A stretch of 63,918 nt of DNA, filler included, from Deltaproteobacteria bacterium (GTDB lineage Bacteria; Myxococcota; JACRCW01): NCBI GenBank assembly GCA_016218805.1. It is 4 parts of 4 records of this genome, joined end to end, with 100 filler letters (N's around TTAATTAATTAA, not from the genome) between each part and the next. Parts side by side here need not be neighbours in the genome. Positions count along the whole stretch, not along the records: positions 1 to 29,887 come from JACRCW010000082.1; positions 29,988 to 49,695 come from JACRCW010000087.1; 2 more parts are not named here. The stretch is one strand, 5' to 3'. Shown here in pieces: positions 6,817-49,685 of this stretch (its first letter is position 1; each line of letters opens with the position of its first letter). The notes below the pieces were generated by a model. The model was not told the origin of the DNA. It saw only the letters and a program-made list of their open reading frames with translations, and did no database searches. A program made the position numbers and the translations under genes.

Positions 6817-6843
6817 TTATCGCACAGGCGCCCCCAGGGTTGC
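6817..6843 (-). promoter_or_regulatory. Putative sigma28/FliA-type promoter (GCAAC-N14-TGCGATAA) upstream of the LysM gene
   Basis: Minus strand reads GCAAC CCTGGGGGCGCCTG TGCGATAA, 51 nt upstream of ATG 6765. Matches the TAAA-N15-GCCGATAA geometry, and the same motif recurs at 49659-49685. Confidence 0.55.
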
Positions 6844-7050
6844 GACGGATCGCCGCGCAAGTGGTTGAATCAAAAGGTGGTTTGTGGTGAGTGGATGTAG
6901 GTGTCCGCGGGCAACCATGCGAGATTCAACGCGAAGTTGCCGGATTGGGCCGCGCCCCGGGGTGGCGGGCTGCGTCAACTGGGGTGCGGGCCGCTGGGGG
7001 GAGTGTCCCGCGGACTGCTAAGGGGGCGGACAACGACGGAGGTGGCGCCG

Positions 7051-7593
7051 ATGGAGACCGGGAAGCTCGTCCAGCTTATCTTGGCCGTGACCCTGCTGCT
7101 GGGAGGCACCGGCGCGTACGGCTTTGTGGTCTACCAGGAGACCGTGGCCAGCAAGGGCAATGAACGGAAGATGGCGGCGCCCGGCTTGGGGGCGTTCACG
7201 CTGGATGAAGGCGGCACCTGGTCCATCTACTGGGAGTACACCGGGGCGCCGCCCTCGCGGATCAACCCGATCCCCATGCCGGAACTGGCCTGCAAGGTCA
7301 CCGACGCCGCGGGCGCCGCGGCGCCCGTGCGCAACGCCGCGCAGAGCACCTACCGCATCGGCGGGACCACCGGAATCGAATTGCTGGAATTCGACGTGAC
7401 GGCGCCGGGCGAGCACCGGTTCGACTGTGAGCTGAAGTCGCCCTATCCGCGCGCACCGGTGTTGAGCCTGAACATCGGCAATTCGATCATTGGCAAATCA
7501 CTCAAGGCGGTGGCCCTGCCGTCCGTGGTGTACCTGGTGGCCATGGGCCTGGCGGCGTGGCTGCTGGTGCGCGCGCTCAAGCCGCGCCGGTGA
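7051..7593 (+). CDS. Hypothetical membrane protein (N- and C-terminal TM helices, beta-sandwich between)
   Basis: GGAGGT RBS before ATG 7051; hydrophobic segments at both ends. Confidence 0.75.
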
Positions 7594-7621
7594 TGGGCCG
7601 GCATCTTCAAGGAGGTGGACC

Positions 7622-8833
7622 ATGCAGGAAGTTGTGGTGGTGGATGCGTGCCGGACGCCCATAGGCAAGCACCGCGGGGGCCTGGCACGGGTGCGGCCGG
7701 ATGACCTGGCGGCCAAGGCGCTGCGCGCCATTGCGGAGCGGTCCAAACTGGACGTTTCCGCCGTGGACGAGGTGATCCTGGGCTGCGCCAACCAGGCGGG
7801 TGAGGACAACCGCAACGTGGCGCGCATGGCCGTGCTGCTGGCGCGCTTCCCCGACACGGTGCCCGCCTTCACCATCAACCGGCTGTGCGCATCCGGCCTG
7901 GAGGCGGTGAATGCGGCCGCGCGCATGATCGCCACGGGCGAGGCGGACGTGGTCATTGCCGGGGGGGTGGAGAGCATGACCCGCGCGCCCTTCAGCCTGC
8001 CCAAGGCGGACGGCGGCTGGCCCAACGGGAACCTCACCGCGTACGACACGACGCTGGGCTGGCGGTATCCCAACCCGGCCATGGAGGCGCTGTTCCCGCT
8101 GGAGCCCATGGGCGAGACCGCGGAGAACGTGGCCGAGCAGGAGCAGGTGAGCCGCGCGGACCAGGATGCGTGGGCGCTGCGCAGCCACCAGCAGGCGGTG
8201 GCCGCGTGGGAGGCCGGCCGGTTCTCCGACGAGGTGGTGCCCGTGGAGATCCCCGAGAAGAAGGGCGCGCCCACCGTGGTGGCGCGGGACGAGGGCCCGC
8301 GGCCGGACAGTTCGCTGGCGGCGCTGGGGAAGCTGGCGCCGGCCTTCCGCAAGGGTGGCAGCGTGACGGCGGGCAACGCCAGCACGCTCAATGACGGCGC
8401 GGCGGCGCTGCTGCTGATGAGCGCGGCGCGCTGCAAGGCAATGGGCCTCACGCCGCTGGCGCGGTGGGTGGGGGCGGCGGCGGCCGGCGTCAGCCCGCGG
8501 ACCATGGGCCTGGGGCCGGTCCCGGCAACGCGCAAGGCGCTGGCTCGCGCCGGCTGGACCCTGGACCAGGTGGACCTGGTGGAGCTGAACGAGGCGTTCG
8601 CGGCCCAGAGCCTGGCGTGCACCCGCCTGCTGGGGCTGTCCGACGAGGCGGCGCGCGCGAAGGTGAACGTCAACGGGGGCGCCATTGCGCTGGGGCACCC
8701 GCTGGGGTGTTCCGGCGCGCGCATCCTGGCCACGCTGCTGCACGAGTTGCGGCGGCGCGGCGGCCGGCGCGGGATGTCGAGCCTGTGCGTGGGCGTGGGA
8801 CAGGGTGTGACGACGCTCGTTGAGCGCGTGTGA
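7622..8833 (+). CDS. Acetyl-CoA C-acyltransferase (thiolase, PcaF/PaaJ-like)
   Basis: [65 protein letters not shown]. Confidence 0.95.
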
Positions 8834-48402: not shown

Positions 48403-48417
48403 CCTGCGCACTTCAGC

Positions 48418-49584
48418 TCAGCGGAACAGCACGGGGTCCGGCAGGAACCGCTGCATCATCAGGTCGCCCTGCAGGCTCATGAGGCTGTTCATGGCGTCCG
48501 TCATGTTGCCCACGGCGTGGAACGCCTCGCCCGGGCCCTGGAACAGCATCCGCAGCGCGCCAAACGGGCCACCAAAGCCGCTCAGCGTGTCCAGGCCCTG
48601 CTGGAACTGGCTGGTGCTGTGCTCGGCGTGGAACATCTGGCCAATCATCCGGGCGGTGGCCGGGTCCATGCCGGGCATGGAAGCCAGCTGGTCAATGCCC
48701 TGGTTGCGCAGCATGTTGCCCCAGGCTTCGGACCCGAACGGAGGACGCAGGCGCGGATCGATGTTGTAGGCCTGGCCGTCGGTGTGCTGCACGTACGCGC
48801 CCGTCTTGTTGTCCATGTGCGCGCCCGTGATCTTGCCCAGGTCCTGGCCGTTGCGCTGCAGGAACCAGTCGTCCCCGTCGCCGCCCAGGCGGAACGTGTC
48901 GCGGTTGGGGTTCTCCGCCATGTGCTGCGCGCGCCACTCGTAGCCGTCATACTTGACGCCCGAGTTGACCGGCTTGCCATCCACGCCGGACACGGACACG
49001 TGGTCCGCGCCGTTGGTGATCTCCAGGCCCGTGGTGACGGAATAGCCCTTCTCCGAGCTGGTCTTGGCGTTGATGCGCGTCCCGTCCGGAAGCACAAAGT
49101 CGCTGTTCTTGGTGAAGTCCCAGCGCGTGCCGTCCTTCTGATCAACATGCGGGTCGCCGTGGACGTGCGTGATGGGCTTGTCACCGGGCTTCTGGTCCGG
49201 CCCAAAGATCTTCCAGGAGGTGTTGCCTTCCGGGACCACCGTGTAGCCGCCCGCGGTGCGCGTGGAGCCTTCCGGCCAGCCCGGCGGGTTGGTCTGCAGG
49301 CCCTTGCCGGCCGGCGGACCGGACAGCTCCATCTGCGGCTGCGGGATGATGCCGGGCGTCATGTGACCCAGCTGCATCATGTTGAACTGGCCAAGCACGC
49401 CCTGGAACGCGTTGATCTGCGGGCCGGACAGCAGGCCGAGCTGCGCGAGCGGGTTCATCCCCATGCCCGCCGCCAGCCCCTGCGTAAATCCCTGGTTGAA
49501 GGCACCCTGCATCTGGATGCCGGACATCAGGTTGTTCATCAGCGATTGCCGATTGAACAGGTTCTGGGCAACGAAGTTCACCAT
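48418..49584 (-). CDS. DUF1521 (MIIA autocleavage)-domain protein, candidate T3SS substrate
   Basis: THVHGDPHVDQKDGTRWDFTKNSDFVLPDGTRINAKT matches the DUF1521 GDPH..DG..FDF...F.L.DGT.I pattern. Q/N/M/G-rich termini, no signal peptide. Confidence 0.7.
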   Translation of the reverse strand: MVNFVAQNLFNRQSLMNNLMSGIQMQGAFNQGFTQGLAAGMGMNPLAQLGLLSGPQINAFQGVLGQFNMMQLGHMTPGIIPQPQMELSGPPAGKGLQTNPPGWPEGSTRTAGGYTVVPEGNTSWKIFGPDQKPGDKPITHVHGDPHVDQKDGTRWDFTKNSDFVLPDGTRINAKTSSEKGYSVTTGLEITNGADHVSVSGVDGKPVNSGVKYDGYEWRAQHMAENPNRDTFRLGGDGDDWFLQRNGQDLGKITGAHMDNKTGAYVQHTDGQAYNIDPRLRPPFGSEAWGNMLRNQGIDQLASMPGMDPATARMIGQMFHAEHSTSQFQQGLDTLSGFGGPFGALRMLFQGPGEAFHAVGNMTDAMNSLMSLQGDLMMQRFLPDPVLFR

Positions 49585-49658
49585 CTGTGTTTCCTCCCTG
49601 GTCTGTTTCGAGGTTTCCGGGTCCGTGGCACCGTGCCGCAGCCCGAGGACGCTCTCGA

Positions 49659-49685
49659 ATATCGACCATTCTTCCGATGCGTTGC
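49659..49685 (-). promoter_or_regulatory. Putative sigma28/FliA-type promoter (GCAAC-N14-GTCGATAT) upstream of the DUF1521 gene
   Basis: Minus strand reads GCAAC GCATCGGAAGAATG GTCGATAT, 74 nt upstream of ATG 49584. Same spacing as 6817-6843. Confidence 0.55.

Follow-up and report, generated by a model that had tools for sequence, protein, structure and literature searches.

A sigma-28-like promoter motif shared by two unlinked genes of a Myxococcota genome and its probable reader, a sigma factor of the T3SS* locus

The window analysed here, 63,918 nt of DNA from the draft genome of a Deltaproteobacteria bacterium (Myxococcota), raises the question of why two of its genes share one promoter-like element and which sigma factor would read it. 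An initial annotation had placed GCAAC-N14-nnCGATAW sites of sigma-28 type in front of two genes for effector-like proteins, and both were found there, on the coding (minus) strand, 51 and 74 nt upstream of the ATG codons at 6765 and 49584. Since the window consists of four contigs (C39, C45, C58 and C134) joined by N spacers, the two genes are unlinked. As judged from sequence comparisons, the motif appears to be real and conserved, and is most likely (with a probability of roughly two in three) read by a sigma-28 paralog encoded by T3SS*, a Myxococcota type III secretion system (T3SS), whose exported components and substrates it would mark. The two sites are as follows.

6817..6843, minus strand: promoter-like motif 1, with the -35-like GCAAC at 6839-6843, a 14-nt spacer and the -10-like TGCGATAA at 6817-6824; ATG 51 nt on
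49659..49685, minus strand: promoter-like motif 2, with GCAAC at 49681-49685, a 14-nt spacer and GTCGATAT at 49659-49666; ATG 74 nt on, contig end 10 nt away

Exact matches in the window were limited to these two sites (0.01 expected), and none of 100 shuffles gave two. The pattern was derived from these same sites, and independent tests therefore weigh more. In the source assembly (G000; 6.43 Mb, 70% GC, 170 contigs, 92% complete), GCAA-N17-CGATAW occurs eight times, corresponding to seven distinct sites as the end of contig C55 overlaps the start of C45, and GCAA is followed by C in all eight; each of 21 other spacings gave 0-4 occurrences. All seven sites are intergenic and six lie 35-85 nt upstream of a same-strand gene, a position held by 31 of the 324 CGATAW words in the genome. 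The genome scan thus put the motif far above background, at which level the initial annotation would have given up its proposal. The seventh site (C93:25075-25101, minus strand) has no called gene behind it and is possibly a remnant. The gene at C19:24136 is preceded by an exact site with a 15-nt spacer, and sites with one mismatch lie upstream of C116:4567 and C140:15920. Among the 4705 genes of this genome, called by a purpose-written script, 14 have a match of at least 10 of 11 bases within 100 nt upstream at a spacer of 14 or 15 nt, versus 3 at control spacers.

The motif is spacing-specific (14 or 15 nt, rarely 16), always oriented toward the gene and non-palindromic. The two boxes, the fixed spacing, the CGATA core of the -10 box and the orientation upstream of genes are those of a sigma-28 promoter, whereas GCAAC stands in place of the canonical flagellar -35 box, the consensus of which for FliA is TAAA-like. 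Apart from those of the two window genes, six motif-linked proteins of the genome gave no Pfam family at E 0.01. One motif-led gene (L015:3660-4814, C68:6659-7813 in the assembly) encodes a protein of 384 aa that lacks a signal peptide and any Pfam family; its N-terminus is T/P-rich, and its C-terminus, with a terminal Phe, resembles that of an outer-membrane beta-barrel. Searches of an open-access library turned up no paper that describes such a promoter or regulon.

The two window genes and their homologs

The genes behind the two sites, with their neighbours, are listed below.

5167..6765, minus strand: 532-aa candidate T3SS* substrate with a polar N-terminus lacking a signal peptide, LysM, a low-complexity linker and a predicted beta-meander at about residues 190-515
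3892..5058, minus strand: 388-aa tetratricopeptide repeat (TPR) protein without signal peptide, directly downstream of the LysM/beta gene; likely its cognate chaperone (or an immunity protein)
48418..49584, minus strand: 388-aa DUF1521 (metal-inducible autocleavage) protein, candidate T3SS* substrate, with GDPH at residues 143-146
44786..45487, minus strand: SycD/LcrH-like TPR chaperone, 40% identical to the product of a gene inside the T3SS* cluster of genome G032
45676..48402, plus strand: two genes outside the system, an unnamed one of 303 aa and an asparagine synthase-like one of 602 aa

The TPR gene directly downstream of the LysM/beta gene and the SycD/LcrH-like gene downstream of the DUF1521 gene had both been noticed initially, as had the polar N-termini of the two products and their lack of a Sec signal. 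Neither protein possesses a hydrophobic N-terminal segment, and residues 2-26 contain 15 S/T/N/Q in the LysM protein and 11 in the DUF1521 protein. Thus, both show the traits of type III substrates: no Sec signal, a polar low-complexity N-terminus and a chaperone neighbour.

A fold model of the LysM/beta protein, built from 7 sequences, had a mean predicted local distance difference test (pLDDT) score of 56. It gave no Foldseek match at E<=0.001, unnamed Atlas clusters at 0.90 or less, and in VIA-align generic beta-barrel matches only (best Z 12.9, root mean square deviation 19.6 over 259 residues; Z 12.2, 2.6 over 124). Because these structural matches are generic beta-barrel sheets, an action of this protein on membrane or wall is a guess. 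Homologs of its beta-rich domain occur in 18 of 400 other genomes of the phylum. Among the 19 homologs, one of which has no upstream DNA, 15 of the remaining 18 have a motif of 10/11 or 11/11 bases whose end lies 11-77 nt upstream of the start, one has an exact match at spacer 16 and two have no motif; many come from one family (f11) and are hence not independent. A gene of 350-400 aa, as counted by size, lies within 160 nt downstream in 11 of the 19 loci.

The 388-aa DUF1521 protein scored 38.2 bits against PF07481 (cut-off 23.6) in a partial match covering model positions 38-106 of 169, and the SycD/LcrH-like protein matched TIGR02552 at E 3.6e-21 (75 bits, below the cut-off of 104.8). Five DUF1521 homologs were compared: the motif is exact in three (L039, L042 and, about 200 nt further upstream, L040), has one mismatch in L038, which belongs to the same genome as G001 (see below), and two in L041. 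All five genomes encode the T3SS* sigma clade, and a SycD-like gene lies close to the DUF1521 gene in four of the loci (L038, L039, L040 and L041). The opposite-strand pair standing between the two genes here does not separate them in L038 or L039.

A sigma factor of the T3SS* locus as candidate reader

The T3SS* operon of relatives encodes a sigma-28 factor of a third clade, which shares about 29% identity with flagellar FliA. The clade is distinct (support 99/100; 16 of 24 tree rows), its members match TIGR02479 below the cut-off, and it is present in all three other genomes of the class. Region 2.4 of these proteins resembles that of FliA, whereas the helix of region 4.2 differs (LSKSWTSRLH versus VSxxRVxQLH); given the established contacts between sigma factors and promoters, a FliA-like region 2.4 and a changed region 4.2 would result in a retained -10 box and a new -35 box. 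The initial proposal of a FliA-like sigma thus holds for the sigma-28 family, but the flagellar FliA is less likely to be meant than this T3SS*-encoded paralog. The sigma operon has the order small gene, motif, SctF-position gene, CdsG-like TPR gene, small gene, sigma gene, often a second motif, and SctI-like gene; intact clusters continue with SctJ, FliG/SctK-like, L, N, O, P, Q, FliO-like, R, S, T, U, LcrH-like genes and V.

Enrichment of the motif was tested in 41 genomes of the phylum by comparing the correct spacing with spacings 19-23 (binomial p<0.01), a wrong-spacing control adopted because a reversed-pattern control was too lenient in lower-GC genomes (G005, G031 and G038). The motif was enriched in 18 of 21 genomes with the T3SS* sigma clade versus 2 of 20 without it. 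These two exceptions are G023, in which the operon ends at a contig end just before the sigma position, and the source genome; G006, carrying a divergent sigma member, was counted as negative (p 0.017). Genomes in which the T3SS* sigma was present and flagellin was not found were enriched in 6 of 8 cases, and those in which neither was found in 0 of 14. Enrichment therefore follows the T3SS* sigma clade better than flagellin. Exact sites generally number about 7-30 per genome; with 108 versus 4.6 expected, G030 has the largest candidate regulon.

Within T3SS* loci, the motif (10 or 11 of 11 bases) precedes SctF-position genes (10/16), SctI-like genes (12/18) and SctP-like genes (3/10). It was found before none of the sigma genes (0/19), small first genes (0/13), sctL (0/4), sctQ (0/12), sctR (0/13), sctT (0/13) or sctV (0/9), and control spacings gave 0-1 matches per gene class. 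Dispersed targets were taken from all 79 exact sites of seven genomes (G001-G003, G008, G012, G034 and G035), 8 of which were dropped as intragenic or lacking a credible open reading frame. At least seven S/T/N/Q in residues 2-26 were encoded by 33 of 71 motif-downstream genes versus 358 of 2813 controls, and a hydrophobic N-terminal segment by 14 of 71 versus 1001 of 2813. A Pfam scan of 65 of the 71 assigned a family to 29. Targets without signal peptide include proteins with LysM+GH46, peptidoglycan-binding+C39, LysM+SLT and triple peptidoglycan-binding architectures, as well as Fic, endonuclease I, M4 protease and DUF1521 proteins. The genomic evidence thus supports the initial view that the genes are scattered, that their N-termini are type III-like and that the motif can serve to find substrates.

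The proposed scheme is as follows. The T3SS* sigma would bind the motif, its FliA-like region 2.4 fitting the CGATA -10 box and its altered region 4.2 explaining the -35 box. The logic of flagellar class 3 genes may have been copied, with membrane and cytoplasmic parts supplied from other promoters and exported parts made late. The proteins would then leave the cell unfolded via T3SS*, aided by the adjoining TPR and SycD-like chaperones. Outside, LysM may anchor the 532-aa protein on peptidoglycan, with an envelope as the site of action of the beta-meander. The DUF1521 protein would cleave itself at GD-PH on meeting calcium. The weakest step is the last one, by which the target might be the envelope of another cell, in prey lysis or antagonism.

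Alternatives and points against the proposed reader

Points weighing against the T3SS* sigma as reader are given here together with the alternatives. The Fisher p of 1e-6 for the association of sigma clade and enrichment is overstated, as kin are not independent, and three sigma-positive genomes (G002, p 0.08; G011; G020) were not enriched. Metagenome homologs of the LysM gene had a 10/11 match in just one of four with upstream DNA. The controls for N-terminal composition came from the source genome only, with starts picked by rule. Furthermore, the target list is mixed: 14 of the 71 genes look Sec-exported, FG-GAP, amidase and LGFP proteins with signal peptides or lipoprotein-like N-termini are included, and so are extracytoplasmic function (ECF) sigmas, a response regulator, a sugar transferase and a desaturase. 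The motif therefore enriches for substrates without defining them. In G002, G003 and G008 the motif is followed by ECF-type sigma genes (L109, L127 and L130), possibly a second regulatory tier.

Such a mixture, together with the 108 sites in a single genome and a Tad partner that was not found in the class, would fit a T3SS* sigma that drives a wide programme, late or extracellular, using several export routes; the two window proteins would then be no substrates of T3SS* or have their role at the surface of the producing cell. This alternative is considered unlikely, although it is the best of those weighed. Neither window protein has a Sec signal, although each contains a domain of extracytoplasmic type (LysM; DUF1521 with GDPH). 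Across genomes, TPR or SycD-like genes accompany the genes of both, and hydrolase families that are usually Sec-exported carry polar N-termini here.

The Tad partner bears on the route of delivery as well. In M. xanthus, the Kil Tad pilus is needed for localisation of T3SS*, which is required for prey lysis, according to two reports (PMC10433427, PMC12075869). A search for CpaB of the Tad pilus (TIGR03177) gave nothing in the four genomes of the class, which are 82-96% complete, nor in G030 and 12 of the 21 sigma-positive genomes; the pilus half of the Kil/T3SS* predation machine was thus not detected in this class. The four genomes of the class each contain 1-2 long secretins, none in the T3SS loci read, in keeping with a T3SS* devoid of a dedicated secretin; a third secretin was found in none of them, which bears on how exported proteins would pass the outer membrane. 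The hydrolases among the targets suggest an attack on cell walls, and to this extent the initially proposed predation or killing is supported, but with no Tad/Kil pilus found in this class predation is less certain.

Another possibility is that a flagellar-clade FliA copy on contig C158 reads the motif and export proceeds via the flagellar apparatus. This contig carries a full flagellar cluster with fliA plus a second FliA paralog, both falling in the flagellar FliA clade; no T3SS* sigma and no second sctRSTV were found in the genome, and presence of flagellin also correlates with enrichment (14/19). The second paralog (L012:12543-13256, C158:82543-83256) is 48% identical to fliA and lies amid signalling genes, about 12 kb off the flagellar cluster. 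Nevertheless, reading by either copy is very unlikely. No CGATAW motif was found upstream of fliC, flgM or other flagellar genes of the genome, and the -35-like box upstream of fliC and flgM is different (CTTAG/CTAAG in the source genome, CTTAT in G001); on these two grounds the flagellar FliA was set aside as the reader. Moreover, the four flagellated, sigma-negative genomes other than G000 and G023 have 0-2 sites, and the enriched genomes without detected flagellin (6/8, above) argue the same way. The late flagellar promoters themselves (L010:9180-9460 and upstream of the gene in flgM position; L027) apparently consist of CT(T/A)A(G/T)C and a degenerate CGA-containing -10 box, unlike the T3SS* motif.

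T3SS*-type genes of the source genome, all outside the flagellar cluster, are as follows.

Contig C61: SctN-like
Contig C143: SctU-like
Contig C83: SctJ and FliG/SctK-like
Contig C24: SctP-like
Contig C145: FHA/SctD-like, the SctD label resting on the place of an FHA gene before sctN in G002 and G003
Contig C45: SycD-like

The search for sct genes proposed initially thus yielded a non-flagellar ATPase, switch and inner ring (SctN-, SctU-, SctJ- and SctD-like), and with them the genome holds both T3SS genes and sigma-28 factors, the absence of which would have spoken against the proposal. It also carries a TIGR02266 domain. In this 92% complete assembly, however, searches detected no sigma operon and no sctL, sctO, sctQRST or sctV, which counts against the preferred reader; a second SctR/S/T/V was sought by tblastn and with hidden Markov models of the relatives' proteins, and none was obtained.

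These gaps, along with remaining T3SS* genes that stand alone and a weak 63-aa FHIPEP-like piece on C86 (L019:8540-8731; possibly a remnant), could mean that T3SS* has decayed in this organism, with export gate and sigma lost and the motif sites left as relics. That, too, is quite improbable. Genome G001, of the same family, is equally scattered, yet sctL, sctN, sctQRST, sctV and the sigma operon are all present there, each on a contig of its own (C138, C143, C162, C491 and C493); sctR, sctV and sctL are present in G001 and G002, and sctR and sctL in G003. The SctN protein of the source genome is intact and 90% identical to that of G001 (86.8% for the DNA), and its motif sites are exact. T3SS* genes in this family are atomised into single genes or mini-operons, and G002 and G008 likewise have an orphan sctV.

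The sigma operon of G001 was further compared with contigs of three groundwater runs (X1, X2 and X3) of one study, X1 being the candidate source. Three X1 pieces of 1617, 1316 and 4256 bp (depth 18.5, 20.7 and 20.9) tile the operon at 85-90% identity and carry, in order, sctI-like, sigma, small-gene, CdsG-like and SctF-position parts. For the pieces of the window itself, depths are 14.6-24.9 in X1 (22.1 and 21.6 for the long ones), 2.4-6.3 in X2 and 2.8-5 in X3, and the short sigma-operon pieces have depths of 2.7-4.2 in X2 and 3.0-3.7 in X3. Further matches to the operon came from another organism, at depth 7.1, and from a partial piece, at 15.7. No link of the depth-matched pieces to a contig of the source assembly was found, and the comparison covered the sigma operon only; both weaken the case. 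Most likely, the sigma operon was dropped from the assembly in binning.

Chance, or binding by a transcription factor other than a sigma, is hardly credible as the origin of the motif: the pattern was picked after seeing the two sites and G005, G031 and G038 reach 9-11 matches from background alone, but it is spacing-specific, gene-oriented and non-palindromic, has retained the -10 core of sigma-28 and goes together with a single sigma clade.

Two further loci of this flagellated organism were noted. L009:11749-19354 (C158) carries benzoyl-CoA reductase and dearomatisation genes, for anaerobic aromatic degradation, and window positions 49886-55186 (plus strand) hold a gene for a 1766-aa ketosynthase/acyltransferase/FabA-like protein, presumably of PfaC type and probably for polyunsaturated fatty acid synthesis.

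The SctF-position gene and comparison with known systems

Among the genes most often preceded by the motif in T3SS* loci is one in the slot of the needle gene, a subunit that Myxo T3SS lack according to Abby and Rocha 2012 (PMC3459982).

L069:2902-3456, L063:5719-6285 and L191:11734-12177: SctF-slot gene in relatives, between a small gene and the CdsG-like chaperone gene

The protein has 145-190 aa with a glycine-rich N-terminal part, and its 55-residue C-terminal helix defines a family found in 36 of the 41 genomes (G000 and G002 having only weak paralogs), also upstream of the sctI-like gene in a second, short T3SS locus; the family matches 2902 clusters at 50% identity. The gene lies where a needle gene would, between E-like and G-like chaperone genes and before sctI-J-K-L, with the E and H labels assigned by position alone; in G001 the best T3SS-specific match of the neighbour is CdsG (E 1.6e-8, below the cut-off). 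No needle family was matched in Pfam or PDB sequences, an hhalign comparison with AscF/YscF was in register but not significant (probability 0.3, E 0.2), and the model (pLDDT 53) gave no significant fold similarity to needles. The odds that this protein is a needle or filament subunit are about even.

Two genes of the source genome end in a weak copy of the same helix, one motif-led (C36, L013:7074-8036; E 5e-5) and one not (C38, L190:3755-5497); their products are possible filament, tip or translocator-like paralogs. Repeated genes of 72-73 aa stand among the LcrH-like genes of the long T3SS* cluster (L064:2052-5050, L166 and L169), and in G012 each copy has the motif before it and matches the helix family weakly.

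The gene order cdsEFG is known from Chlamydia. The yscEFGHIJKL operon of Aeromonas and Yersinia likewise has a small gene, the candidate's counterpart, a CdsG/YscG-like TPR gene and a small gene, then SctI-J-K-L. It differs in that a sigma gene is inserted before sctI here and that the candidate has no significant needle-family match. If the candidate is what its position suggests, it challenges needle loss in the earliest-branching non-flagellar T3SS, as discussed in PMC3459982.

The nearest known system is T3SS* of M. xanthus, MXAN_2434-2464, the 'long' Myxo locus of Abby and Rocha 2012 (PMC3459982). As far as passages of four reports describe it (PMC10433427, PMC12075869, PMC3459982, PMC12403147), it resembles the single cluster of the relatives in SctI, J, L, N, Q, FliO-like, R, S, T, U, V, several LcrH-like chaperones and no secretin, whereas here the genes are scattered, the organism is flagellated and a Tad/Kil pilus was not found. 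The same passages describe no promoter, dedicated sigma regulon or effectors, and in two of them the effectors (PMC10433427), the regulation and the delivery route (PMC10433427, PMC12075869) are called unknown. With sctQ being MXAN_2445 (PMC10196010), counting back along the collinear cluster, which is all that this assignment uses, would make the sigma MXAN_2437 and the SctF-like protein MXAN_2434. If so, a motif scan of M. xanthus would name the missing prey-lysis effectors; in general, the 11-base motif gives a short list of candidate effectors per genome and makes T3SS* effectors directly testable. A wider view, held tentatively and at somewhat less than even odds, is that Myxococcota T3SS* has its own late sigma-28, the promoter of which lists the exports, including an overlooked SctF-like subunit, with which a system described as needleless would build a needle or filament, and variable envelope-attacking effectors, and that many lineages do without the Tad pilus.

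For the DUF1521 protein, calcium-induced autocleavage at GDPH is described (PMC6506597) for a protein from a T3SS cluster whose relatives, the NopE proteins, are type III-secreted. With NopE1/NopE2 and VIC_001052 (MIIA/DUF1521) it shares a DUF1521 match above the Pfam cut-off, an intact GDPH and T3SS association; the Pfam model is partly matched here, the hosts are not plant or coral associates, and cleavage and secretion are predicted.

The FliA class 3 regulon is similar in sigma family, CGATA -10 core, spacing and late expression of exported parts. It differs from the present one in that the T3SS* sigma forms a separate clade (about 29% identity) with an altered region 4.2, the -35 box is GCAAC versus TAAA, the targets are non-flagellar and the sigma is present where flagellin was not found. 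A FliA paralog retained in an injectisome locus would show that flagellar late-gene logic was carried over when the injectisome originated from the flagellum.

HrpL is an ECF sigma and drives apparatus operons as well. As with HrpL and its hrp-box, for which PMC4149516 describes promoter-based effector finding, a sigma factor of a T3SS locus appears to mark apparatus genes and scattered effectors; here, it would be a sigma-28 paralog that serves exported parts only, and the targets are likely bacteria.

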